Positions 38,551 through 59,929 of a stretch of DNA of 60,666 bases are shown piece after piece. Each line of letters begins with the position of its first letter. The stretch's first letter is position 1. The DNA is taken from IMG/VR virus record IMGVR_UViG_3300017989_000052. One strand, given 5' to 3'. The notes beneath the pieces were generated by a model, which worked only from the letters and a program-made list of their open reading frames with translations, did not search any database and had not been told where the DNA came from. The DNA is from a virus. Its lineage: Duplodnaviria > Heunggongvirae > Uroviricota > Caudoviricetes. The position numbers and the translations under genes are program-made.

Positions 38551-39009
38551 ATGAACAAGCATCTCATAAAATACCTAACCCATAAATCAGAAAGTCTTAG
38601 AGATTGGGTTAAAGACCGTATACAGAGAACAGATCAAAGATATGATGTGATTGAAGGAACTACCCGAGAGATTCCAGAAGAACATATATATGTCCTAGGA
38701 GAGGTTAATATCTCAGTTGAAAAGTTAAGCTCCTTAAATAGAAAAGTTGTCTATTGTGAATGGCTCGATTGTTCTAACAACCGATTAGAATCCCTTCCAG
38801 AACTTCCAGTCTGTAAAATACTTTTTTGTTGGAATAATCGCCTAACCCAACTTCCAGAGCTTCCCGCCTGTAAGATACTTTATTGTTCCAACAACCTATT
38901 GACCCAACTTCCAGATCTTCCAAAATGTAGAGATCCTTATTGCACAGAAAATCCAGGATATCCATTCAAAGCAAAACGACAACCAATATCTATACAGTAC
39001 AGCTCCTAA
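38551..39009 (+). CDS. LRR protein 1 (N-terminal LTH tag, three 19-aa LRRs)
   Basis: HLIKYLTHKSESLRDWVKDRI; CxxLxCxxNxLxxLPxLPx; cap NPGYPF. Confidence 0.85.
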   Translation: MNKHLIKYLTHKSESLRDWVKDRIQRTDQRYDVIEGTTREIPEEHIYVLGEVNISVEKLSSLNRKVVYCEWLDCSNNRLESLPELPVCKILFCWNNRLTQLPELPACKILYCSNNLLTQLPDLPKCRDPYCTENPGYPFKAKRQPISIQYSS

Positions 39010-39043
39010 ATCAAAATTCATGGAAAAGAGGTAGCAAAGTAAA

Positions 39044-39316
39044 ATGAAAGACTCCTCTTTACAAAATCGAGCTTTTTGTGTCACCCTTTCTGGGGTACCT
39101 GTGGAAGTATTACTGCTCAAGGACTCTATGATTCATTTGTCAAGGTTAGGTAAATCATATCCCAAAGAGGTAAGAGATTTCTATATTACGGTTATTTCAG
39201 ATTATCAAAAGCGAAACGAGAATGTCCCCGAAATACCAATTAAATCCCTCTTGACTCATGTGAATCCCCAAGTACGAGAGGTAGCAAAGGATATCTTAAG
39301 TGGACAAGAAATTTGA
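39044..39316 (+). CDS. LTH-tag protein (EIPIxSLLT subfamily)
   Basis: EIPIKSLLTHVNPQVREVAKDIL. Confidence 0.8.
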   Translation: MKDSSLQNRAFCVTLSGVPVEVLLLKDSMIHLSRLGKSYPKEVRDFYITVISDYQKRNENVPEIPIKSLLTHVNPQVREVAKDILSGQEI

Positions 39317-39560
39317 TAATAGAGTATTTAGATTTGAGATGCCGAATTCAGAAAGATTCTGGGTTTGGTTTTTGGAAAATCCCGGTCCCGGTTTTTTGTT
39401 CTTCACCGAAACCCGCTTTGATACCTACTGGTGGCATTATGAGGTTCGGGAAGAATATAAAAGATATCCACTTAAAACTGAAATACCAATTGAATCCCTC
39501 TTAACCTTTGAGAATCCGGAAGTTAGAAAAAAAGCAAAAGAGTTTCTGAAGGACTCCTAA
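39300..39560 (+). CDS. LTH-tag protein (EIPIxSLLT subfamily)
   Basis: EIPIESLLTFENPEVRKKAKEFL. Confidence 0.8.
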   Translation: MDKKFDNRVFRFEMPNSERFWVWFLENPGPGFLFFTETRFDTYWWHYEVREEYKRYPLKTEIPIESLLTFENPEVRKKAKEFLKDS

Positions 39561-39596
39561 CCAAGAAATCTTAGAACTGATCAATTAGGAATCGTC

Positions 39597-40473
39597 TTGA
39601 ATAAACATCTTTCTAAATATTTAACCTCAGAAAATCAAAATCTTAGAAACTGGGTTAAATCTAGAATAAATCGAATCGATCAAGTCTTTGAAGTGATTAA
39701 AGGAGATATCGATTCCAGAAGAGAATCAATATGTCTGTGGAGCGGTTTGGATTTCAAGTCAAAACTTAAAATCATTAGGATTTAAGGTTATTTATTGCGA
39801 GGAACTCTATTGCGATAATAACAGATTGACTAAACTTCCAGAACTTCCTGTTTGTAAAAAACTTTGGTGTTATATTAATGAATTAAGGTCTCTTCCAGAT
39901 CTCCCAGTCTGTAAAAATCTTAATTGTCAAGATAATGAATTGACCGAACTTCCAGACCTGCCAGTTTGTGAGACATTTTATTGCAGCAATAATCGATTGA
40001 CTAGCCTTCCAGACCTGCCAGTCTATAAATATCTTTCTTGTAATAATAACAGATTGACTAAACTTCCAGAACTTCCTGTCTGTGAGTATCTTTATTGCAG
40101 CAATAACCAATTGACTAAACTTCCAGACTTACCCGTCTGTGAAGATCTTTATTGTGCTAATAATAAGTTGACTGAACTTCCAGATCTCCCAGTCTGTAAA
40201 GATCTTAGTTGTGCTAATAATAAGTTGACTAAACTTCCAGATCTCCCAGTCTGTGAAAAACTTTGGTGCAGCACTAATCAATTAACTGAACTTCCAGACT
40301 TACCAGTCTGTGAAAAACTTTGGTGCAGCAATAACCAATTAACTGAACTTCCAGACTTACCAGTCTGTGAAGATCTTTCTTGTAATAAGAACAGATTGAC
40401 AAAACTTCCAAACTTCCCAGTATGTGAAGATCTTAGTTGTGAAGATAATCCAGGATACCCATTCAATGAATAG
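39597..40473 (+). pseudogene. LRR protein 2 (11 LRRs), frameshifted by a 5-bp deletion near 39713
   Basis: ATCGATTCCAGAA versus ATCGATTATATTCCAGAA in LRR4; ORFs 39597-39785 and 39826-40473 join. Confidence 0.8.
39800..40465 (+). repeat. 57-bp coding tandem repeats (LRR units)
   Basis: Example unit CCAGACTTACCAGTCTGTGAAAAACTTTGGTGCAGCAATAACCAATTAACTGAACTT. Confidence 0.9.
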
Positions 40474-41002
40474 CCACCTTTCTAAATATTTAACCCACGA
40501 ATCAGCAGGTCTTAGAGATTGGGTGAAGTCTAGAATCCCAAGAACAGACCAAAGATATGAAGTGATCGAAGGTAATACCAACTATATTCCAAAAGAATCC
40601 CACTATGTCTATGGAGAAGTTAATGTTTCCAGCAATGACTTAAAATCTCTAAGAGTCAAAGTCCTTTATTGTGAAGCCCTTGATTGCTTTAATAATCAAT
40701 TAACATCCCTTCCGGAACTTCCAGTTTGTGAGACACTTCATTGTGGCAATAATCAATTAACACAACTCCCCAAACTTCCTGTCTGCAAAACTCTCTATTG
40801 TCGGCCCAACCAATTAGAATACCTCCCAGAACTTCCTGTCTGTGAAGAACTTGATTGTGGAAGTAATCAATTAACCCAACTCCCCAATCTTCCTGTCTGC
40901 AAAACTCTCTATTGTCGGGCCAATCAATTAGAATACCTTCCGGAGCTTCCAAAATGTGAAGATCTTAGTTGTGAAGATAATCCAGGATATCCATTTAAAT
41001 GA
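40466..41002 (+). CDS. LRR protein 3 (N-terminal LTH tag, five LRRs)
   Basis: HLSKYLTHESAGLRDWVKSRI; ends CEDLSCEDNPGYPF. Confidence 0.85.
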   Translation: MNSHLSKYLTHESAGLRDWVKSRIPRTDQRYEVIEGNTNYIPKESHYVYGEVNVSSNDLKSLRVKVLYCEALDCFNNQLTSLPELPVCETLHCGNNQLTQLPKLPVCKTLYCRPNQLEYLPELPVCEELDCGSNQLTQLPNLPVCKTLYCRANQLEYLPELPKCEDLSCEDNPGYPFK

Positions 41003-41397
41003 TCTCAAATAACCACCTCATAAAATATCTAACCCATGAATCTAAACATCTTAGAAATTGGGTAAAAGAAAGAATCCCAAGAACAGATCAAAGATTTATT
41101 GTGATAGAAGGTAACATCGATTATATTCCAGAAGAACATACATATGTCTATGGAGAAGTTTATATCTCAAATCAAAATCTCAAATCCCTAAATAGAAAAG
41201 TTATATATTGTGAAGCCCTTTATTGTTTCCATAATCAATTAATAAAACTTCCAGACCTCCCAGTTTGCGTGTACCTTGATTGTACAGGTAACCAATTAAT
41301 ACAACTCCCAAACCTTCCCGCTTGTAAATACCTTCATTGTAGAGAGAATAAATCACAGCCCTTCCAAACCTCCCAGTATGTGAAGTGATATGGCAAT
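40999..41397 (+). pseudogene. LRR protein 4, 3' frameshift and truncation
   Basis: HLIKYLTHESKHLRNWVKERI; after CRENK the repeat continues in another frame (TALPNLPVC) and there is no C-cap. Confidence 0.65.
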
Positions 41398-41415
41398 AAA
41401 GCAAGGAGAGTAAAA

Positions 41416-45908: not shown

Positions 45909-46208
45909 ATGTCGAATCTGACATGGGAAGAATTCAAGGCGGAGTGGATGGACGACCATGATCCGGAGGGCTGGGACTACTACGTCTACAAGTTCCACGA
46001 GGGTGGAAAGCTGCCTTGCTGGCTCTATACCTTGATTGAGAAGATTCGTTTCCCTTTCCGCATGGCATGGCAATTCGTGCTTATGAAGCGGTGCGAGCGG
46101 GAGGGACATCATCTCGTCGATGACGGGAGCTGGGCGAATCCTGAGAGTGGTGGAGACGCTTACCGCTGCACTCGGTGCGGCGAATCTTGGCGACACGTTT
46201 ACTACTAG
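45909..46208 (+). CDS. hypothetical protein with C-terminal Zn motif
   Basis: GAGGAGG RBS, TTGAG-ATG start; CEREGH...CTRC. Confidence 0.7.
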   Translation: MSNLTWEEFKAEWMDDHDPEGWDYYVYKFHEGGKLPCWLYTLIEKIRFPFRMAWQFVLMKRCEREGHHLVDDGSWANPESGGDAYRCTRCGESWRHVYY

Positions 46209-46254
46209 GTCGCCTTTACCCCTTGGTTGGGGGATTTTTGCTTGGAGGTGTGTT

Positions 46255-46815
46255 ATGGAATCGACTTCTCGCGGTCAAGGCCGCACGATCATGTTCATCG
46301 ACAACAGCTACGTCTTCAGCGGGATGCTTTCCGCTGGGTGGCGTTTTTCTTGGGAGAAGCTGCTCAACCATCTCGAGGGTGAGGGGGAGATTTGGCAAAC
46401 TCATTTCTTCGCCTCGGAGCATGTCCCTCCGAAGGAGAACCAGCGCAACTTCTTCAACATGCTCTCCTACAACCTCGATTTCGAGCTGCACCTCACGAGC
46501 ACTCGTCAACGTCAAGTCAAGCTTGGGGATGAGTCGAAAACGATCTTCCTTGACAAGGGGCTGGACGTGCAGTTGGTCACTTGGATGATGATCCTGCTGC
46601 GCAACCAGGCATTTGACACGGTGATCCTGCTCAGTGGGGATGGCGATCTTTGCGAGGCTGTGCGGGAAGTCAAGCGCACTGGCTGCAAGGTCGAGGTTGT
46701 GGGGTGGCGCAATTCGGTCGCTCGGGAGTTGAATGACCTTTCTTCTCGCCGGCCTGTGCTCTATCTCGACGACATCCGCGAGCAGATCGAGAAGGACGAG
46801 GATCACCAGCTCTAG
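46255..46815 (+). CDS. NYN domain (PIN-like) nuclease
   Basis: MFIDNSYV, KGLDVQL, ILLSGDGDL...VREVKRTGCKVEVVG; GC-rich. Confidence 0.9.
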   Translation: MESTSRGQGRTIMFIDNSYVFSGMLSAGWRFSWEKLLNHLEGEGEIWQTHFFASEHVPPKENQRNFFNMLSYNLDFELHLTSTRQRQVKLGDESKTIFLDKGLDVQLVTWMMILLRNQAFDTVILLSGDGDLCEAVREVKRTGCKVEVVGWRNSVARELNDLSSRRPVLYLDDIREQIEKDEDHQL

Positions 46816-46824
46816 GTCTACGGG

Positions 46825-46860
46825 GAAAGGGGGAGTCCTTCGGGGCTCCCCTTTTTTCTT
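46825..46860 (+). terminator. intrinsic terminator
   Basis: GGGGGAGTCC-TTCG-GGGCTCCCC-TTTTTT. Confidence 0.85.
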
Positions 46861-46864
46861 TCTA

Positions 46865-46896
46865 ATTACTAGGGTATTTCATAGTATAAATAATAG
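46865..46896 (+). promoter_or_regulatory. putative phage promoter
   Basis: GGTATTTCATAGTATAAATAATAG, near-identical to 49587-49610. Confidence 0.6.
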
Positions 46897-46947
46897 CTGG
46901 GGGGACTACTCCCGGCAAGTATTGCCCTTATCAGAGGAGAGCTTGAG

Positions 46948-47199
46948 ATGAGGACACTATTCGAGCGGGTGCGGCAGGAATTGTTCGCCCTTGGATTCTC
47001 GGAAGTCGATGAGGAGTCTTACTTCTCTGATGGGAATGACCAGTTCGAGGCGACCAAGGACGGGGTTGTGTACTGCTTCTCCTGTTATTGGCAGGACTTC
47101 GTGCTGGATGGCCCCAATGTTCTGCATTGGGGGGAGGGCACAATCACTTTCCGCTGGCAAGACGAACCTGGAAAGGGTGTTTGGGCGGTCACAGAATAA
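46948..47199 (+). CDS. hypothetical protein
   Basis: GAGGAG RBS, TTGAG-ATG start. Confidence 0.65.
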   Translation: MRTLFERVRQELFALGFSEVDEESYFSDGNDQFEATKDGVVYCFSCYWQDFVLDGPNVLHWGEGTITFRWQDEPGKGVWAVTE

Positions 47200-47204
47200 G
47201 GTAT

Positions 47205-47278
<74 letters not shown>

Positions 47279-47309
47279 TTTTCCCCCAAAACATTTACGG
47301 AGTTAAAAA

Positions 47310-47525
47310 ATGGGATCCAAGCTTGACCAACTGGCTGAGATCGAGGGAATGGGAGTTATGGAGATGCTCGAGATGGGCACCTACGACTCTGTTTGCCCTG
47401 GTATCTGCACAAACCCTGATTGTTCCTATACGGTCGAGGTTGAGCCGGATTGTGATTCCGGGTATTGTGAGGAATGTCAGACCAATACGGTTAAGTCCGC
47501 TTTGAGTCTTGCGGGCATCATTTAA
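47310..47525 (+). CDS. small Zn-finger protein
   Basis: CTNPDC...EPD...CEEC. Confidence 0.75.
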   Translation: MGSKLDQLAEIEGMGVMEMLEMGTYDSVCPGICTNPDCSYTVEVEPDCDSGYCEECQTNTVKSALSLAGII

Positions 47526-47558
47526 CCGAGATCCGCCACGATTTCAGGAGGGAATCCG

Positions 47559-47816
47559 ATGCAACGTCCCTATAAGGTCAAAGTTGTGTGGCTTGATTCC
47601 AAAGAGACTGCAACGGGCGCGGTCGTTGGTCAAAATAAAGATAATCTCGTGATTGTCTTCGACCACGAAGAGGGCGAAGAGTACGAGTTTGAGCGCCTTG
47701 ATCATTCTCAAAGGCCACCGGCAGCGGAAAGCGATGTTCTCTGGTATGAAATCAACAACTCCTCGGATCTTGTCGAGATCAAAAGGGTACTCCGCGATGA
47801 ACGTGAAGGCGAGTAA
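47559..47816 (+). CDS. hypothetical protein
   Basis: AGGAGG RBS. Confidence 0.65.
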   Translation: MQRPYKVKVVWLDSKETATGAVVGQNKDNLVIVFDHEEGEEYEFERLDHSQRPPAAESDVLWYEINNSSDLVEIKRVLRDEREGE

Positions 47817-47888
47817 AGCTTTCAAGGCGGCACTCGAATCTTGCAACTAACCAAAGCCCGAGATAGGTCCCTTTCTAAGGACTTTGAG

Positions 47889-48059
47889 ATGAACCCTTTT
47901 GAACCAGATGAGCTTGATCCTTCGTATCGTCCTCCGATACAACGGCCTTTCTCGCCGACTTCTAAGGATGAAGAGAAAAAGGAATCTTCGGATCTTCCTC
48001 TTTTCCTTGTGATTGGGGCGATTCTTGTGATCTTGATGGTTTTCGGGTCGGCTTTTTAG
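47889..48059 (+). CDS. small C-tail membrane protein
   Basis: TTGAG-ATG start; C-terminal TM. Confidence 0.6.
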   Translation: MNPFEPDELDPSYRPPIQRPFSPTSKDEEKKESSDLPLFLVIGAILVILMVFGSAF

Positions 48060-48068
48060 GAGACCTGC

Positions 48069-48518
48069 ATGAGCGTTAACATCGAACCAGAAGACAATTG
48101 CCGGTTTTGTGAGAAGCATGGCACGGTCCAATATGAGACCTATTCTTGTATGTGTGCCGATTTTGGTCCGGAAGCCATGAAGGAATGTCTTGAATGTAAG
48201 GGTACGGGGGAAGTAAAGTTCCCTAAGTATCCTCATTCGGTCAATCTTTCTAATGGAAATTGGCATACCCTTCATTCTGCGCTTGCCCTCCCGGGGGATT
48301 CTTGCTGCGGATCGGTAGAGGCCGATTTTCTCATCACACAAATCAGATCGACCCCAGCGGAACTTGGGGTGCGGGCGGGGAGCGACTCTCAAGAACCTGG
48401 GAAAGCCCGAGTAATCTCGCTTGGTATTGATGAGTCCTATGTAGAAACCCGGTTTATCGCTCTTTTTGCTATTGCTAACGAAGCCAAGCGGCGAAAAGTT
48501 CTCGTAACCTGGGGATAG
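48069..48518 (+). CDS. Zn-finger-containing hypothetical protein
   Basis: CRFC; CLECKGTG (DnaJ-like CxxCxGxG). Confidence 0.7.
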   Translation: MSVNIEPEDNCRFCEKHGTVQYETYSCMCADFGPEAMKECLECKGTGEVKFPKYPHSVNLSNGNWHTLHSALALPGDSCCGSVEADFLITQIRSTPAELGVRAGSDSQEPGKARVISLGIDESYVETRFIALFAIANEAKRRKVLVTWG

Positions 48519-48731
48519 CCCCTCTGCCACAAAGTAAAATGAATTTCAAAACATCCCTCGTACTTCTTTTCATCTACAATATTTTCCGTGGGTCCCTTGC
48601 TACCTATGCTTCTGGAGACATGTCGTTCATGTTTATCTGCTCCATATGCGGCGCTATAGGTCTTGGGATGATCATCGGCGAGAAGAAAGCAGAGGACGAA
48701 AAGTCCTCGTAACCTGGTTCAGTTACACTTT

Positions 48732-48932
48732 ATGAAAGGAATAGCAATGCTTGACCACATCCGCCTTCTCCTGGCTCTTCTTGTGTACCATACCCTTTCG
48801 GCCCTGTTCTTGCTCGGCGCTGGGGGTTCGGTTTCTCACATCATCCTTGCTTGGGTCGCGTTTTCGGTTGGCCTTTTCCTGCTTGGGTTGGCCTCTGCAT
48901 GGGAGGATCGAAAGCTTGTCCAAGTAAGCTAG
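48732..48932 (+). CDS. small 2-TM membrane protein
   Basis: Two hydrophobic helices. Confidence 0.55.
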   Translation: MKGIAMLDHIRLLLALLVYHTLSALFLLGAGGSVSHIILAWVAFSVGLFLLGLASAWEDRKLVQVS

Positions 48933-48939
48933 GTTATTA

Positions 48940-49012
48940 GGGTGTGTAGCTCAGTTGGTAGAGCAACGGCCTTTTAAGCCGTAGGCCCTGGGTTCGAGTC
49001 CCAGCGCACCCA
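48940..49012 (+). tRNA. tRNA-Lys (TTT)
   Basis: Cloverleaf, ACGGC-CTTTTAA-GCCGT anticodon arm. Confidence 0.95.
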
Positions 49013-49062
49013 TCGCTAGGTTCGGGTTTCGAGTTTTGTATTTCATTTGCAAGGAGAGCAAG

Positions 49063-49170
49063 ATGAAGCGTTCCTCCGGAGCTTCCCGTAAGCAAGTTCG
49101 GCAGCATCGTCGTGATCAGCGGGTCAAGCGTACCAGGGAAAGGGTTGCCCTGAAGCGTCAGAAGAGTTAG
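49063..49170 (+). CDS. small Arg-rich peptide (35 aa)
   Basis: AAGGAG RBS; MKRSSGASRKQVRQHRRDQRVKRTRERVALKRQKS*. Confidence 0.6.
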   Translation: MKRSSGASRKQVRQHRRDQRVKRTRERVALKRQKS

Positions 49171-49184
49171 CCCTCAGAGGGCAA

Positions 49185-49258
49185 GGGCCGATAGCTCAAT
49201 TGGTTAGAGCGCTTCCCTCATAAGGAAGATGTTCTGGGTTCAAGTCCCAGTCGGCCCA
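49185..49258 (+). tRNA. tRNA with CAT anticodon, probably tRNA-Ile2 (lysidine type)
   Basis: Cloverleaf, CTTCC-CTCATAA-GGAAG; C4-G69 and C5-G68 pairs match TilS determinants. Confidence 0.85.
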
Positions 49259-49291
49259 TCCCTTTTTCCTCCTTCTTTCAGGACAAAGCCA

Positions 49292-49564
49292 ATGCAATTC
49301 AAAAAAGAGTATCTCGAAGATAAAGATGGTAAACGGGTATTCCGTATTTATACGGACACCTATGGCAGAACCCTTGCGTTCCTCGAAACACTCGCGACAG
49401 AGATCAAGAAGAGTTTCCCTCCGCTTCATCCAGAAGACCTCGCTGTTGTGAAATATGGGGGAACCCGTAACCGCCAGATCTATGGAATCGAATTCTTCCC
49501 CCCAACTGATGTTGTGCCTTCTGGTTGGGAAAGGGTATCACAATTTGACCCCCACATCTCGTAA
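49292..49564 (+). CDS. hypothetical protein
   Basis: Start moved to ATG 49292. Confidence 0.65.
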   Translation: MQFKKEYLEDKDGKRVFRIYTDTYGRTLAFLETLATEIKKSFPPLHPEDLAVVKYGGTRNRQIYGIEFFPPTDVVPSGWERVSQFDPHIS

Positions 49565-49579
49565 GGCATTTCTTTCCAA

Positions 49580-49612
49580 GCACCAAGGTATTTCATAATA
49601 TAAATAATAGCC
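49580..49612 (+). promoter_or_regulatory. putative phage promoter
   Basis: GGTATTTCATAATATAAATAATAG. Confidence 0.6.
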
Positions 49613-49667
49613 AAGGGGACTGCCCCGTTCTTTTGGGCGTATTTTCTACATCAGAGGAGAGTTTGAG

Positions 49668-49997
49668 ATGAGTCAGCCCTTTGAATCGAATCCTGCGACC
49701 CCTGAACAAATTAAGGGTTTGATTGATTCCTGCGACGGAAAGATCGTCGATTGGAAGGATCCCCAGCTGTGCCGCGTACTCCGGTTGCGGTTGCTTTCTG
49801 ATCCGGGCTTTCCCGCCTGGGATGTTAGCTACTGTTATGGGGAACTGAAGGATGGGACTGTCGTGAAGGTCGAACTTCCCTTCAGTCAACTCCTGAAAAG
49901 GGAATCGATCAACTCTCAAATCGTGCGCTTCGCGAAGAAAGACGGCGTTTTCGCGAAAGGTCTTGAAATCTTTGGTGCGATTTCCACTCTTAACTAA
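49668..49997 (+). CDS. hypothetical protein
   Basis: GAGGAG RBS, TTGAG-ATG start. Confidence 0.7.
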   Translation: MSQPFESNPATPEQIKGLIDSCDGKIVDWKDPQLCRVLRLRLLSDPGFPAWDVSYCYGELKDGTVVKVELPFSQLLKRESINSQIVRFAKKDGVFAKGLEIFGAISTLN

Positions 49998-50010
49998 GGG
50001 GTTTGACTCC

Positions 50011-50178
50011 ATGAAACCGATCAATCCCAACGAACCCAAAATCAAGTGCCCACATTGCGGAGTTACTGAGATGCCTCCCGGGTGGTCGGATGCTTCCCTA
50101 GTCGAGGACCTCTTAGACCTCAAGGCTCTCCGGGACGAAGGCGTGATTATCTGTGATGCCTGTGCGAACAAGCCCTGA
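50011..50178 (+). CDS. small Zn-finger protein
   Basis: CPHC...CDAC. Confidence 0.6.
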   Translation: MKPINPNEPKIKCPHCGVTEMPPGWSDASLVEDLLDLKALRDEGVIICDACANKP

Positions 50179-50235
50179 AATCTCTTTTTCCGATTCAGGC
50201 CCTAAGAGGCCGAACCCTTCAACCCCAGGGATAAG

Positions 50236-50535
50236 ATGAAGCTGATCCAAAAAAACCTCTATAACCAGAACCAGAGCTGGAATTATCTTGAGATCATCGA
50301 AGATACTCATGGTAACCGACTCCGGATCTCGGTACGGCGCAATGCCTATGAAGAACAGTCCCACGCAAAAGTCGAACGCTGGGATGGGAATCAGTGGCAA
50401 TTCGTAACCTCGATCCCAATCACTGAGTGCGCCTGTTATGACATCTCTTATGTGACCAAGGACCCAGACCAAACACTCTTTGAGCAGGATGCTGTAATGC
50501 TTCGGCTTTATGCGGAAGCGATCTGCAAGCCCTAG
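50236..50535 (+). CDS. hypothetical protein
   Basis: ORF in operon. Confidence 0.7.
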   Translation: MKLIQKNLYNQNQSWNYLEIIEDTHGNRLRISVRRNAYEEQSHAKVERWDGNQWQFVTSIPITECACYDISYVTKDPDQTLFEQDAVMLRLYAEAICKP

Positions 50536-50559
50536 AGAAACCCAAAAAAGGAGAGAGAC

Positions 50560-50706
50560 ATGGACCGCGAAGCCCTCAAAGAAGCCTTTCAAGAATACGT
50601 GGGGTGGATGTTGCCCGGCAAGAAGGAGTTGAAGGAGATGGCCTTCGCTGTCGGATACGTCTCCCTAATCTATCTCCTGCTCTGGGTTGCTTCCCTCTTC
50701 CTCTAA
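50560..50706 (+). CDS. small C-tail membrane protein (48 aa)
   Basis: AAGGAG RBS; C-terminal TM. Confidence 0.6.
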   Translation: MDREALKEAFQEYVGWMLPGKKELKEMAFAVGYVSLIYLLLWVASLFL

Positions 50707-50728
50707 ACACCTAAACACCCTTTTCCCT

Positions 50729-50941
50729 ATGATCATTCAATTAAGTTGTGGGAAGAAAGCTGTATCCTCTTTCAGCGAAGCTTCTAAAGAAGCCTGTGCC
50801 GATCGGGATAAAAACGGTTTTGGAGCCCGTGATCTGCCAAAACGGTGGGGGGATGTGACTGACACTGATGGCACCCCCCTCGGCCAGGTTAGTTATAATG
50901 GTCGGGTCTGGGACATTGCCAACAACGAAATCCCCACCTAG
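50729..50941 (+). CDS. hypothetical protein
   Basis: MIIQL...GQVSYNGRVW. Confidence 0.6.
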   Translation: MIIQLSCGKKAVSSFSEASKEACADRDKNGFGARDLPKRWGDVTDTDGTPLGQVSYNGRVWDIANNEIPT

Positions 50942-51040
50942 GAGATCAAGTGTCCGAGATCCTCATCTTCCTCCTCTTCTTTGCGATCCCGATTTATTTC
51001 GGAACTTGGGTACTTTGTGCCCTCTCAAAAGGAGTCCACC

Positions 51041-51151
51041 ATGAGCCGTCGACGCTACAATCCACCCGAATCCCCAATTAACCCCATCCCCGGAATCCTG
51101 ACCATGCTCGGTTTGCTTCTCGCGATCGGCCTTCTCATCTGGATCTTCTAA
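51041..51151 (+). CDS. small C-tail membrane peptide (36 aa)
   Basis: AAGGAG RBS; MSRRRYNPPESPINPIPGILTMLGLLLAIGLLIWIF*. Confidence 0.6.
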   Translation: MSRRRYNPPESPINPIPGILTMLGLLLAIGLLIWIF

Positions 51152-51220
51152 CCCCGGAACTTAAAAGACAAAACGCAACCCGGGATTAAAACGAACAACC
51201 TGCTTTTTGGAGTACATCTT

Positions 51221-51472
51221 ATGCCTTGTCTTCGCTGTGGCTCGCACCGTATCGCCGACATTAACGCAAAATGCTCGGATCTTTGTTTCGTTTCCATCCC
51301 CGGATTCTCGGAACACGATGGATACGTTCCCTCCTTCCTAGGCGGCGGAGATTATGTGAGGCTCGATATCTGTCTCGAATGCGGACAAGTGCAACAGAAC
51401 TTCCCCGTCACCGACGAGGATCTCGAAGAGTCCGGCGATTTCAAGAAAGCAGTTGAGACCGAGCTTCCCTAA
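51221..51472 (+). CDS. Cys-rich Zn-binding protein, paralogue of 45347
   Basis: CLRCGS..KCSDLC..ICLECGQVQ. Confidence 0.75.
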   Translation: MPCLRCGSHRIADINAKCSDLCFVSIPGFSEHDGYVPSFLGGGDYVRLDICLECGQVQQNFPVTDEDLEESGDFKKAVETELP

Positions 51473-51884
51473 AACTCACATCTCAAAACAGAACCCGCCC
51501 TAAATAGAATATTGGGGGGTGGTGATCGGTTTTGGACAGGGCAACGGCTATCTCTCTCTCCTCTTAGCCAAGCCCAACTCAATGTCCATGGGGTTTCCGA
51601 TTGCCACCCCCTCCATTTTGCCTACCGCATCCCTAGATTCTGAAACTCCCCCTCTAAAATTAAAAGACCCAAATCTAAAGATCGCCGCTAATTCTAATAT
51701 TAAAGTTTTGAGATGTCAAATCAGCCCCCGGAATTTAATCTCAAAACTTTAATATCCTATCCCTAAACTAAACCTACTAAACCCTAGAGATAGATATTCC
51801 AGTATAAGAGATACTTTCTATTACACCGATCTTTCTCTGAATCCTTTATATCCCGTCTTTCGATGAAACCCATTTAAAACAAGC

Positions 51885-51912
51885 AAAAAGAAAAGGGAGC
51901 CTTTCAGCTCCC
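51885..51912 (-). terminator. intrinsic terminator of paralogue 2
   Basis: GGGAGC-CTTTCA-GCTCCC with an A-run on the + strand. Confidence 0.75.
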
Positions 51913-51940
51913 TCCCCTTTCGAAAACCTATCTCAACCTC

Positions 51941-52240
51941 TTATTTGAGATTGATCGGCACGTTCGCCTGCTCGAACCATCCCTTGAGGTTCTTCTTAAC
52001 CCAGTCCTTTCGCACGTACCACCGACGAGCCTTCTGGTAATACCCGAGATCGTCCCCCTCAAGAGGGTTCGACCGAAAGACCTTTCGGAGCCGGAAGGAG
52101 TAATTGAAACCCTCATCCGGGCTCGCAGCAGAAGGATCGAATTCAATCGACCCCTTCGCTTTCAATCCCTTGAGAAGCTCCATCAACTTCATTTCCGACT
52201 TCTCGCCATAGATCGCCTCAATAACCTTAGATACCGTCAT
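51941..52240 (-). CDS. GC-rich conserved basic protein, paralogue 2 of 3
   Basis: MKLMELLKGLKAKGSIEFDPSAASPDEGF...RRWYVRKDW. Confidence 0.85.
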   Translation of the reverse strand: MTVSKVIEAIYGEKSEMKLMELLKGLKAKGSIEFDPSAASPDEGFNYSFRLRKVFRSNPLEGDDLGYYQKARRWYVRKDWVKKNLKGWFEQANVPINLK

Positions 52241-52314
52241 CTCAACAACTCCGCTTCAAACCCAGGGGAAAAGATAATAGAACCCAACAGGGATTCATTC
52301 CCACCCCCAATTCC

Positions 52315-52360
52315 TATAATTATTATATGACTGTAAAGCAGTGTAAAACCAGTGTAACCT
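52315..52360 (-). promoter_or_regulatory. conserved promoter element, copy 2
   Basis: Minus strand TTACACTGGTTTTACACTGCTTTACAGTCATATAATAAT. Confidence 0.6.
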
Positions 52361-52689
52361 ATTTTTCCCCACCGTATGGGATTCCAACCATCTTTCCAGT
52401 TTCTGAGATACTAAAAAATTTTTCGGGGTTTGAGACTAGTCTTTCGCCGAAAGGCCCAACCCCCTAACTTTCGTTGAAACCCATATTTAGTCTTTCAACG
52501 ACCTATTCAAAGTACGACCGGTAAAACCGGCCCCTATCGTTTCGCGGGGAGGAAGTGTAATTGTTCCTGTCGCCTCCGCTCCTGCTTCGACCTCCAGCTC
52601 GGCTTTAAAGGACAGTGTTTCTGGCCCTTTTGACGACAGACGTATTTCGCCGAGCAGACTACACATTCACCCTTCATCTCAATACCCCC

Positions 52690-52926
52690 CTAGCCAAGAG
52701 AACCCAAGTCAATTCGTTTGGGAGGAGAAGGAAGAGACGAACCCTTCAGCTCCCCCTGGAGCACCCTTCGCAAAGCGCCAACCCCAAACGCCCCAAACTT
52801 TTTCTGAAAGCCCTCCGAACGAGAGCACGCCCGAATCGCCTCCACTATATAGATCGCCTCCGTATGGTCGAAGCCCCGATCAGTGAAGACCCGAATCTGC
52901 CTTGTCTGTTCGTCTGTCAGTGCCAT
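52690..52926 (-). CDS. hypothetical protein
   Basis: ORF in minus-strand block. Confidence 0.6.
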   Translation of the reverse strand: MALTDEQTRQIRVFTDRGFDHTEAIYIVEAIRACSRSEGFQKKFGAFGVGALRRVLQGELKGSSLPSPPKRIDLGSLG

Positions 52927-52961
52927 CTCTTAATCCCCCTAGAAAAAGAAAAACCCAGAGC

Positions 52962-53267
52962 CTACCCCCGGAGAAAGTCATCGAGAGACATACTTATCCC
53001 CGGAGGCAGCTTCAATTCGAAACCTACCACCCCCTGCTCCTTGACCCGCTCCACCACCACCCGGTGCCCCTGCAAGATCCGGCGAGCCCGAAGCCGCTCA
53101 GCCTCCTTCTCTCCATACCGCCGGACATCGAAGTGGTATTGGCAAAGATGCCCCCCACCAACGATCTGATACTTGCCAGCCTCTTTACAGCCCGCTTCCT
53201 TACAAGGATAAGACATCTCTAAGCCCTCCAAGTCTTGAGGAACAAAAACCCCGGTATTCAAATCCAA
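52962..53267 (-). CDS. hypothetical protein with Cys/His motif
   Basis: CKEAGC...CQYH; start uncertain. Confidence 0.55.
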   Translation of the reverse strand: MDLNTGVFVPQDLEGLEMSYPCKEAGCKEAGKYQIVGGGHLCQYHFDVRRYGEKEAERLRARRILQGHRVVVERVKEQGVVGFELKLPPGISMSLDDFLRG

Positions 53268-53286
53268 AAAGCGAACCCGGGAAGAA

Positions 53287-53362
53287 GAGGAGCGGAGGGA
53301 GTCGAACCCTCAGCCATCCCAATTAAGAGACGACCTAAACCGTTACGCCCTTGACCGCACCT
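53287..53362 (-). tRNA. degenerate D-armless tRNA-Leu(TAG)-like element
   Basis: T-arm GAGGG-TTCGACT-CCCTC, acceptor AGGTGCG/CGCTCCT, loop TTTAGGT, long variable arm. Confidence 0.45.
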
Positions 53363-53549
53363 ATTTCTTATCCCTTTCGAGCAGAAGCTGAGTCCCGAAA
53401 GACCCCAAGTTGAAGCTCATCCCAATACCCAAGAATAGATGGGTAGGAGTGAGCCCCTCGATCAGCCCCGCCAAGACAATGAAGCCCAGGAAAAGAGCTG
53501 AGAGGCAGACGATCACGATATAGAAGCGTTTCAAGTTTTTGAGAGACAT
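53361..53549 (-). CDS. small 2-TM membrane protein
   Basis: GGAG RBS before MSLKNLKR; two TM segments. Confidence 0.6.
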   Translation of the reverse strand: MSLKNLKRFYIVIVCLSALFLGFIVLAGLIEGLTPTHLFLGIGMSFNLGSFGTQLLLERDKK

Positions 53550-53673
53550 AGCAATCTCCAAAAATAGAATAGAGGGTGAGAAAGGAGCATTGGGAGTTGA
53601 ACCCAATACCGGACCAGGCGAACACCTGATCCCCTCGGCCCCTGATTTACATGTGCCTTACGAGGCCGGGCCG

Positions 53674-53715
53674 AAAAGAAACCCCAGGGAAACGACCCCC
53701 CAGGGTTTCTTTTCG
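53674..53715 (-). terminator. intrinsic terminator of paralogue 3
   Basis: AAAAGAAACCCCAGGG...CCCCAGGGTTTCTTTT inverted repeat. Confidence 0.75.
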
Positions 53716-53737
53716 GATCTCGGCGCCGGCGGACCTG

Positions 53738-54136
53738 TTAGGACTTCTTGGAGTCCTTCGCATCGGTCTTCGCGTCGGCGCCCGGGAGCGCGATGTCGAC
53801 GTTCGCTTCGGCGAACCACCACGCCAGCTCGGCCAGGGCGAAGCTCTTGCGGATGTACCACCGGCGGGACTTCATGTACGCGCCAGCGGCGGCCTCGGCG
53901 TCGGCATCCTTCGGCTTGTGGTCGATCGCGCGCGAGCCGTGGTTCTTGCGGAACACAGCGCGCAGCTTGAACGACGCATTGAAGCCGGGATCGGGGGCCT
54001 GGGCGCTCGGGTTGAAGGCGATGCACCCCTCGGTCTGGAGGCCCTTCAAGAGCTCCATGACCTTGATGCAGTCCTTGTCCCCGTAGATCTGGCCCACGAG
54101 CTGCTTGACCGACGCGATCTTCTTCGAATTCGCCAT
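53738..54136 (-). CDS. GC-rich conserved basic protein, paralogue 3 of 3
   Basis: AGGAGAG RBS before MANSKK; KVMELLKGLQTEGCIAFNPSAQAPDPGF...RRWYIRKSF. Confidence 0.85.
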   Translation of the reverse strand: MANSKKIASVKQLVGQIYGDKDCIKVMELLKGLQTEGCIAFNPSAQAPDPGFNASFKLRAVFRKNHGSRAIDHKPKDADAEAAAGAYMKSRRWYIRKSFALAELAWWFAEANVDIALPGADAKTDAKDSKKS

Positions 54137-57572: not shown

Positions 57573-57665
57573 GTCTTTGATTATATAAGTCTTTGATTAT
57601 ATAAGTCTTTGAGATCAATATAAGTCTTTGATTATATAAGTCTTTGATTATATAAGTCTTTGAGA
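57573..57665. repeat. 16-bp tandem (iteron-like) array
   Basis: GATTATATAAGTCTTT x2, a 19-bp variant, then x2. Confidence 0.9.
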
Positions 57666-57745: not shown

Positions 57746-59929
57746 TTACATGTCAGTAAAAGCTTTCCCTCGAAGAAGGAACGATAGGGCATTTGTTTTG
57801 GTTATAACTTTTATTTTCTTCCCAGCGAAATCCATTAGTCCCCTAAAGTTTTCTAAAAGCTCTAATTCTTCTTTTGTAAATTTATCTCTACCGACGTAAT
57901 TGAGAACGGCATCTCGTATTTGCTTTTCTCCTCCCTTGGCGTTTAATTCAATCAACTTATTTTTCATTTCTTGGGATAATTTTGATTTCTCTATATCAAG
58001 GGCTGTTAAATGCTTTGCTGCTGCAGAGGAGATGCCCGGCATCTTATAGGAGAATATGCTTTCTAAAAACCATATAATTTCTTTTGGGGTTACTTTCTTT
58101 ATTTTTTCTAGGTCAATATTAAAATCTTTTAAAAGGGCATCCATTTGTTTTTCAAACGTGTGCCAAGATAGGTATTTAAAGCCCTCTTGCCCAATTATCT
58201 CTCGTATTGTTTCTTTTGGCACGGCGAGCTGAAATAATTTTTCAACTCGTTCTTTTGCTTTCAACAGTTTTGGAAGGGGGAGGGAAGTGAAAAAGGCATC
58301 AAGGTGGACTCCCATTGCCAAAAATTCTTTTGGCCTTTTAGCAATTTCTTCTAATTGGCTTATTGTTGTCTTAGAGAATAATTTGCTCAGGTATGCTTCG
58401 AATGCTAATTTTGGCCCAAGTGCGGCTGTATTTTCTTCAAAACTTTCTCGGAGAGCTTTAATAACTTTAACTTTATCCATTGACCCCGGCAGGTGAAAAA
58501 ACCCGCTTAATGCCTTATATTGTTCTTCTTCGCTACCTTGCGAGAAGACATCATTAAAATAGGATTTAAGTTCATCTAACATTGTTCCTTCCTTGTTAGG
58601 GGATGGAAGGGAGTCTAACTCTGCATAATATTTTATTTTTGCTGCGGGGTCTGCTTCAATTATAGCGAGGGCTTTTTTTCCTATCTCCGTTTTTGGATTC
58701 CAAGGCTTGAGAAACGTACTTGCGTAATGAATGGCTACTGTTTTGTCTTCCACTATTACTTTTAATGCCTTTTTCCCAAACTCTGAATTTGGGTCCCAAG
58801 GTTTTCTCATTTCTTTAGCATAGTCTGTGGCGGCTCTTGCATTTTTTGTTATCTGAAATAGGGCTACTTTTCCTTCTTCGGTGTTCGGGTCCCAAGCTCC
58901 ATATTTTTGCGCGCTTTTAAGTACTCTAGCTATGTTATTAGAATAAGCTGCGGTAATTTTAATTTCTTTTATAATCTCAGGGTCTTCTGTTTTAATTCTT
59001 AAGCAGGTTTGTGGGTTTTTCGCGAGTTTTAATAAATCTTCTTTTGTAAGCTCAATAAGATCGTGCTCATATAAGGTTATTAGCACGCGGGTATCATTTT
59101 TTGCGGTTTCATAAATACGTTTAACTTCATCTTTAAAGTCTTTTACTTTGAAATCATAATTAAGGAAGAGGTATATTAGGAATCCTAATTTCTTCTCATT
59201 CGGCAAATCCGGATATATTTTTCTCATTACAGTTGGCAAGATTGAATCCATCGTTGCTTTATTAATTTCGTCGTCGTCTGGAAATTTAAACTCTGCATCT
59301 TGATTTGTAAAGCTTCCTAATATATAATTCTTCCCATCTTTAATAAAGAGATAATGTGTGCCTCTTTCTGCTATATAATCTTCTGCGGTTTCTTCGTGTC
59401 TCACACACCAATCTATGTGTACCTCAGGGTCTTGAGCGAGGATTGTTAAAGATTTAGGGTCAGATATTTCATATATAAGGAGTTGCCCTCCTTGGACTTT
59501 TTTAACTCCTGGGAGGTTGCGAGAATCAATTTTCTTTTCTCGGACTTCATTTCTAAGTTTTGGTGCTTCTTCTTCAAATCTCTTGAGTGTTTTTATTAAT
59601 TCATCTTTCGTATATTCAAGAATATTTGTAGGAAGTCCTAATTTATTGAGTCGGGGCTTAAATTTCTTGAATTCCTGAAGCCTTCTTTTGGCTGCTTCAA
59701 AGTCTTCGGGGAATCTATAATTTCCTGCGTACCATTCTCTGGCAATCCAATCAATATATTTTTGATCTATACCATAGAGAAGTTTCCAAAATTCTTCTTC
59801 TAATAGATTTTTATCTTCAAGGAATTGGTTAAAGTTCTCTTTAGATTTAAATGCCGTTTGAATTGTTTGTTGTTTAGAAACGGCGATTCTAATGATTGAT
59901 GCTATTCTAAGTAATTTATATGGTATCAT
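57746..59929 (-). CDS. large hypothetical protein (727 aa) with short helical W-x-P repeats
   Basis: YIDWIAREW, WCVR...HYLFIKDG; repeats AQKYGAWDP, YAKEMRKPWDP, YASTFLKPWNP. Confidence 0.8.
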   Translation of the reverse strand: MIPYKLLRIASIIRIAVSKQQTIQTAFKSKENFNQFLEDKNLLEEEFWKLLYGIDQKYIDWIAREWYAGNYRFPEDFEAAKRRLQEFKKFKPRLNKLGLPTNILEYTKDELIKTLKRFEEEAPKLRNEVREKKIDSRNLPGVKKVQGGQLLIYEISDPKSLTILAQDPEVHIDWCVRHEETAEDYIAERGTHYLFIKDGKNYILGSFTNQDAEFKFPDDDEINKATMDSILPTVMRKIYPDLPNEKKLGFLIYLFLNYDFKVKDFKDEVKRIYETAKNDTRVLITLYEHDLIELTKEDLLKLAKNPQTCLRIKTEDPEIIKEIKITAAYSNNIARVLKSAQKYGAWDPNTEEGKVALFQITKNARAATDYAKEMRKPWDPNSEFGKKALKVIVEDKTVAIHYASTFLKPWNPKTEIGKKALAIIEADPAAKIKYYAELDSLPSPNKEGTMLDELKSYFNDVFSQGSEEEQYKALSGFFHLPGSMDKVKVIKALRESFEENTAALGPKLAFEAYLSKLFSKTTISQLEEIAKRPKEFLAMGVHLDAFFTSLPLPKLLKAKERVEKLFQLAVPKETIREIIGQEGFKYLSWHTFEKQMDALLKDFNIDLEKIKKVTPKEIIWFLESIFSYKMPGISSAAAKHLTALDIEKSKLSQEMKNKLIELNAKGGEKQIRDAVLNYVGRDKFTKEELELLENFRGLMDFAGKKIKVITKTNALSFLLRGKAFTDM

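Follow-up and report, generated by a model that had tools for sequence, protein, structure and literature searches.

The window analysed here, a stretch of DNA of 60,666 nucleotides, contains a group of paralogous genes that probably belong to an inherited, lineage-specific birth-and-death family of tagged mini-LRR binders under moderate diversifying selection. Each intact protein would form one rigid domain composed of an LTH helix pair, a short beta cap, three to five (and up to 11) repeats and a C-cap. The comparisons below show a fixed framework with fast change at strand positions 3, 5 and 7, gain and loss of repeats through duplications that are mostly within-gene, occasional sequence exchange among neighbouring copies, duplication of whole genes and their frequent decay. 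Diversity would build up on an evolutionary time scale from point mutation and ordinary recombination, with no dedicated assembly step. We infer that the ligand of the concave face is a protein that is itself subject to change, most likely one of the host, and since no catalytic domain is present, such binders would act by stoichiometric blocking or as adaptors. The tag would tie the binder to a partner or destination common with ~50 other tagged proteins of the window, and would also N-cap the solenoid. In the literature searched, no description was found of such a 19-residue repeat combined with a tag that is used genome-wide; the same search, with most subscription journals outside its coverage, returned no account of a tagged, diversifying phage LRR family.

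The DNA of the window is 100% identical to part of a 335-kb ENA contig and its proteins are recorded on contigs of up to 384 kb, which gives an element of 335-384 kb. Within the window, genes are short, densely packed and mostly in one orientation, and Shine-Dalgarno 4-mers precede 29 of the 68 starts as compared to 12.5% at random positions. Elsewhere on the contig, PHROG matches identify a T4-type polynucleotide kinase, DNA and RNA ligases and an NAD synthetase. Based on this Shine-Dalgarno excess and the PHROG-matched phage genes, the reading of the element as a jumbo phage of a prokaryote fits. A scan for promoters and terminators returned chance levels only. Other features of the window include a 16-nt AT-rich unit repeated ~5.5 times in tandem at 57573-57663, non-coding and possibly an origin or a binding-site array, which lies beside a 727-aa ORF on the minus strand (57746-59929) without a Pfam or PHROG match. 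At 46000-54000 the GC content is ~0.49-0.54, as compared to 0.35-0.45 elsewhere, with a lower gene density; the sign of the GC skew flips near 50 kb and an NYN-domain gene is located at 46120-46815.

Organization of the array and the LTH tag

An array of four paralogues with 19-residue Cys-LRRs, as put forward in the original prediction, is indeed present at 38551-41400 in the form of four paralogous segments with a 57-nt periodicity. With a strict pattern, 21 intact in-frame CxxLxCxxNxLxxLPxLPx units are observed, distributed as 3, 11, 5 and 2 over copies 1-4, in agreement with the earlier counts for the first three copies, while copy 4 contains two intact units instead of about three. All genes of this region are on the plus strand. 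Copy 1 (38551-39009) is intact and encodes a 152-aa protein with the tag, the cap, three LRR units (38755-38925), a C-cap variant and a short tail. It is followed within the array by two genes not related to LRRs, one of 90 aa (39044-39316) with a C-terminal LTH tag and one of 86 aa (39300-39560) with a C-terminal LTH-type tag, and these separate copies 1 and 2. Copy 2 is divided into a 5' part (39597-39785), which encodes the tag and the first half of the cap (62 aa) before an out-of-frame stop, and a 3' part (39796-40473) with 11 LRR units (39796-40422) and the C-cap. The repeat frame is open from 39697 and has its first common start codon at 39826; the corresponding ORF (39826-40473, 215 aa) is tagless, with no Shine-Dalgarno at its start. 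Copy 3 (40466-41002) is intact, encoding 178 aa with the tag, the cap, five LRR units (40670-40954) and the C-cap. Copy 4 (40999-41388, 129 aa) has the tag, the cap, two intact units (41209-41322) and a shifted third unit, without a C-cap. The N-cap and C-cap sequences quoted earlier are exact in copies 3 and 4 and in copies 2 and 3, respectively, and not in the other copies, and all four quoted variable stretches (KKLWCYIN, ETFYCSNN, KDLSCANN and KTLYCRPN) are found.

Thus, half of the array, copies 2 and 4 of the four, is broken, and for copy 2, the main one, this had escaped the initial description. Near 39711, copy 2 has 5 nt fewer than the other three copies, which places its tag and its 11 repeats in different frames. 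In copy 4, the third unit goes out of frame through the loss of 1 nt near 41354, and a C-cap is absent in every frame. Assembly error behind both frameshifts is unlikely, since the copy 2 lesion is present in ENA and JGI contigs and the copy 4 lesion in ENA, JGI and a Logan contig, though reads are possibly common to these assemblies. The sequence at the copy 2 lesion (39701-39714) contains AGGAGA 5 nt before an ATT codon in frame with the 11 repeats; if this rare start codon is used, copy 2 could yield a tagless product.

A 36-nt tract at the end of copy 2 (40422-40457, plus strand) recurs without mismatch in copy 3, likewise at its end (40954-40989). It is the sole long exact match between copies and contains the AGGA preceding the start codon of the next copy. 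At 40447-40468 and 40979-41001, the Pro-Gly codons of the C-cap furnish this AGGA and the stop and start codons overlap, because of which copies 2, 3 and 4 look translationally coupled. At copy 1 and at both dispersed copies described below, a Shine-Dalgarno-like 4-mer is absent or weak.

The common N-terminal tag of the copies, also part of the original prediction, was examined with a profile built from 27 non-LRR tags of the window only and with 2,960 shuffled proteins as a null. The N-termini of copies 1-4 score 17, 9, 15 and 20 bits, against a shuffled maximum of 8.1, with copy 2 as the weakest match (9.1 bits). These scores are carried mostly by the core columns, flanking columns alone scoring low (-1 to 4). 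By profile match, spacing and helix-turn-helix arrangement, the N-terminal motif of the LRR copies belongs to the LTH tag family, of which 52 further ORFs in the window are detected by the profile, 44 with the tag near the C-terminus and five at the N-terminus. In the AlphaFold model of copy 3 (pLDDT 95, pTM 0.90, 10 sequences), the tag corresponds to two helices (3-10 and 14-23), after which come three cap strands and then the repeat strands. Since the best structural alignment, to YopM, covers model residues 2-178 beginning at YopM residue 34 and hence includes the tag, the predicted model suggests that the LTH tag may double as the helical N-cap characteristic of this LRR class. Between copies, tag codons (dN/dS 0.21) and the N-terminal region (0.2-0.5) are under purifying selection. 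When the N-terminal 72 residues were used in the ESM Atlas, LRR-type or unnamed leads only were obtained (0.89-0.92) and no structure above TM 0.46.

Family distribution and selection on strand positions

The tagged ~70-residue N-terminal region is rare, with 10 proteins in 5.8 billion and 10 credible matches in 1.84 billion representatives, and as judged from these sequence searches it is confined to 10-11 proteins of this lineage. Phage LRR proteins are rarely described, and no family member was found in IMG/VR, in GTDB genomes or in 50,697 GenBank phage records; JGI metagenome contigs contain one. Two dispersed copies are located on the same contig as the array, at distances of ~110 and ~180 kb, and the remaining members are on short contigs from other samples, at least five of which carry the family with the tag kept. 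Comparison of repeat number across these related sequences, suggested at the outset, revealed a range from 0 to 11. In a 1.1-kb contig, three copies follow each other in tandem, namely an upstream one, an intact one with five repeats and a decayed one, and a 633-nt contig has a tagged gene, a zero-repeat copy, in which an internal deletion fuses the cap straight to the C-cap, and the start of another copy. Since decayed or zero-repeat members are present in the arrays of two other samples, it is typical of this lineage that a tandem array includes broken members. On contig L005, two tandem C-tagged paralogues (22-448), with the W-V-K dialect of the LRR N-termini, are directly upstream of a family copy, and a relative follows the array in contig L012. 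The start of L012 (1-140) has an exact 70-nt tandem duplication, which shifts the frame of the upstream copy and reflects either an out-of-register duplication or an assembly artefact.

In the standard LRR geometry, positions 3, 5, 7, 8 and 10 of the repeat are on the concave side (see also PMC9525666). Among the 21 units of the window, entropy amounts to 3.05, 2.42, 3.18 and 2.34 bits at positions 3, 5, 7 and 8 and to 1.9 bits at position 10, as compared to 0-0.28 bit at nine framework positions and 0.9-2.2 bits at the other x positions. The LPxLP half had been described as nearly invariant, which is valid for its framework and not for its x positions 13 (2.2 bits) and 16 (1.65 bits). Within-gene mismatch is 0.76 at concave and 0.43 at other positions in the window, and 0.84 and 0.71, respectively, in other family members. 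The predicted enrichment of variation on the concave face is supported, with dN/dS above 1 at positions 3, 5 and 7. At the same time, unrelated proteins with a 19-residue Cys-type repeat have a mean mismatch of 0.81 at concave as compared to 0.59 at other positions, and as the bias is also observed in them, it is in itself generic to this repeat type.

Selection was addressed using a codon model on 46 family units, with a second version in which synonymous changes in the first half of the repeat are given a separate rate. Per-site dN/dS values are 2.0, 1.5 and 2.1 at positions 3, 5 and 7, 0.85 at position 8, 0.48 at position 10 and 0.2-0.5 elsewhere. When positions 3, 5 and 7 are taken as a class, which was picked after the per-site scan, dN/dS is 2.4-2.5 (LRT 27-34), or 1.6-1.8 (p 0.001-0.015) with the separate first-half synonymous rate; other x positions have a value of 0.47 and the framework 0.01. 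The class of positions 3, 5, 7, 8 and 10, fixed in advance, gives 1.38, or 1.09 with separate half rates. Neutral simulations, in which trees were re-inferred each time, have a mean of 1.1, and the observed 3/5/7 value was reached by 0 of 161 simulations without recombination, 0 of 72 with separate half trees and 0 of 49 with a faster first half. The window units alone give 1.6-1.8 at positions 3, 5 and 7 (LRT 3-5.5, borderline) and the five units of the intact copy 3 alone give 0.67; the corresponding values are 1.6 (1.2) in giant-virus controls and 0.96 at one other viral locus. In independent close pairs, pN/pS over the five concave positions is 1.1-1.2 (pN 0.26-0.41 vs pS 0.22-0.38; p ~0.2-0.5) and exceeds that of the other x positions (p 0.001-0.03). 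These values are to be read with the caveat that trees of 57-nt units are poorly resolved and that codon bias can lower dS. Taken together, the codon comparisons are read as a signature of moderate diversifying selection, somewhat above that in controls and of the same kind.

The near-neutral value of the advance-defined class, along with two of four copies broken here, broken copies in both other arrays, the same pattern of variation in unrelated proteins with such repeats and absent or weak Shine-Dalgarno-like 4-mers at copy 1 and the dispersed copies, could also be explained by a slippage-prone, decaying family with little current function, whose framework was fixed by past folding selection and whose exposed strand positions are unconstrained. 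This is quite unlikely, because the framework and the N-terminal region are still constrained, the family is kept with its tag in the other samples, and positions 3 and 7 exceed both 1 and the neutral simulations. Diversifying selection, on the other hand, does not name the opponent. The binders might be aimed at non-defence targets, such as rival phage or mobile-element proteins, toxins (in an Imm-LRR-like manner) or the phage's own diverging tagged proteins; the copies are placed amid dozens of unrelated tagged orphan genes, and poly-immunity loci of polymorphic toxin systems include LRR proteins with a predicted immunity role (PMC3482391). However, no toxin gene was recognised beside any copy and no PADLOC match was obtained, neither of which is a strong argument, and such targets are considered unlikely.

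Recombination and population variation

Of the closest repeat pairs, which have 2-11 differences, nearly all join units of one gene: 9/10, 7/8, 1/5 and 4/6 in copy 2, and 2/4 and 3/5 in copy 3. Framework codons, too, resemble one another more closely inside a gene than across genes (p = 0.012). Exact in-register matches run to at most 20 nt when the two units come from different genes, as compared to 30-37 nt within a gene. Recombination was evaluated by a codon-block version of PHI, which superseded the plain PHI (p < 0.001) and gave p = 0.01 for the 21 window units, 0.21 for copy 2 alone and 0.13 for the family; the window value was reached by 0.3% of recombination-free simulations. A comparison of distances in left vs right halves gave no significant sign of recombination. 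Copies 2 and 3, whose C-caps have the 36 exact bases in common, differ at two of 42 C-cap positions, as compared to 59 of 192 in their N-terminal regions, and from this comparison one between-gene exchange of the C-caps is likely, with the reservation that the synonymous contrast between these copies alone is not significant (p = 0.14) and that the tract also holds the ribosome-binding site of the next gene. Overall, the pattern is that of slippage and unequal crossing-over, as in any tandem repeat, and not of a flow from cassettes to an expression site.

A recombination-driven library of binders had originally been proposed, of which past recombination among repeats is supported and an active library with a donor pattern is not. 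In its strongest form, as a VLR or silent-cassette system, the frameshifted 11-repeat copy 2 would serve as a donor whose modules are copied often into expressed copies. This would account for 11 nearly perfect units in a copy cut off from its tag, for the recombination signal in the window with the tract common to copies 2 and 3, and for Logan contigs that end at 39390 and resume at 40960, on either side of the repeats. However, short-read contigs break at such repeats anyway, and the repeats group by gene, with longer unit matches within than between genes. The array contains no incomplete expression gene with donor cassettes, and no dedicated diversifying enzyme was seen among the genes of the window and of ~40 kb from other loci. 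Mutagenesis by a DGR was also considered and rejected, because differences between close repeats are not confined to adenine (24 of 72 differences between close pairs are without adenine).

Population variation was examined on consensus sequences, probably from one site, with identity look-ups that favour identical matches, so that rare variants could have escaped notice. On this basis, the array is 100% identical in ENA and JGI assemblies, all assemblies match the window where they overlap, and 90% protein clusters contain start-codon variants only. Cap-profile searches of 5.8 billion proteins and 1.84 billion representatives revealed no alleles with another repeat set and no intact copy 2, and among the 10-11 family matches from the two protein libraries there is no copy with the same cap and other repeats. 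VLR logic as a mechanism was thus not sustained, with no donor cassettes, grouping of repeats by gene and no allelic variant in assemblies or proteins, and an actively reshuffled library is very unlikely. A related proposal, a renewable antibody-like panel of mini-LRRs in which the tag localises to the virion or a scaffold, the face recognises fast-changing host defences and array recombination renews the faces within populations, is rather unlikely.

With the inherited birth-and-death family as the preferred reading, intact copies, if they bind host proteins, would provide ready-made probes of host defence systems, and for binder design, a stable scaffold of 19 residues whose strand positions are free could be of interest. 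The LRR copies are the most tractable members carrying the LTH tag because their cargo has a known fold. What tempers this significance is that the family is small, that some copies are broken and that concave variation is generic in LRRs.

Fold and relationship to known LRR systems

The repeats contain tandem motifs of the LxxLxLxxNxL type and are predicted, by the model and by fold searches, to form the curved parallel-beta solenoid of the LRR superfamily, and copies 1-3 match Pfam LRR_4 above its curated cut-off. The YopM/IpaH-type fold of the original prediction was supported by the AlphaFold model and by searches with Foldseek and VIA-align, in which IpaH, SspH1 and YopM are the best matches of the copy 3 model, most top matches having Z of 15-16.5 and rmsd of 1.9-3.6 across 141-153 residues. 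The LPxLP-type variable segment of the 'bacterial' LRR class is present, with positions 14, 15, 17 and 18 near invariant in the 21 units. The period of 57 nt, or 19 residues, on the other hand, is outside the 20-22 residues of that class (PMC2946307).

As in IpaH, SspH1/SspH2/SlrP of Salmonella and YopM, the phage proteins combine an LPxLP second half with a similarly placed, predicted helical N-terminal cap, and share the solenoid (Foldseek E 9e-6 to IpaH2.5 of Shigella; VIA-align Z 16.5 to YopM of Yersinia). They differ from these by the 19-residue repeats with Cys at positions 1 and 6 and by their size of 129-185 aa, ending after the C-cap without an NEL ligase domain. Scores to NCBIfam IpaH-type families are 15-100 bits, against cut-offs above 1,100, and the copies have no match to the Pfam LRR_TTSS in a genomic context that is phage-like. 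Unlike secreted effectors, they are encoded by a phage-like element with no sign of a eukaryotic target. Cys at repeat position 6 is also found in internalin J of Listeria, whose profile weakly matches copy 2 (E 4.5e-5), the score being 22 as compared to a cut-off of 1,700. InlJ differs in being a large protein of the cell surface whose repeats are 21 residues long.

Shortened viral LRRs of 19 residues were reportedly described by Matsushima et al. in 2021, and a viral 19-residue LRR on record is MSV251 (PMC2946307). Here, the 19-residue Cys-type unit is also observed in ten unrelated proteins from the set of homologues, five giant-virus loci and two other viral contigs. The best match among viral models is the Tupanvirus LRR protein A0A6N1NRA7 (E 1.7e-7, rmsd 1.1, 45% identity). 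Short giant-virus LRR proteins (GVMAG loci L016 and L018-L021) have the same unit and the same concave-biased variation, but carry N- and C-terminal regions different from those of the phage family. Contig L017 (604-2645) contains tandem viral genes of 232 and 446 aa with 19-residue Cys-type repeats and a different N-terminal domain, which is also present in P0022, and pentapeptide-repeat genes are located downstream of this pair.

Like the VLRs of lamprey and hagfish, the phage proteins have constant caps around a variable number of LRRs and a concave binding face, which is predicted in the present case, although the structural match is weak (5ufc, E 0.003). In each cell, a VLR is assembled through a conversion-like process, in which an incomplete germline gene is completed with sequence from hundreds of donor cassettes on its flanks (PMC3308329), whereas the phage copies are whole or frameshifted genes with no donor-cassette pattern. 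Thus, the LRR copies resemble small effector-type binders without a catalytic domain, and are neither members of the IpaH family nor a VLR-type system.
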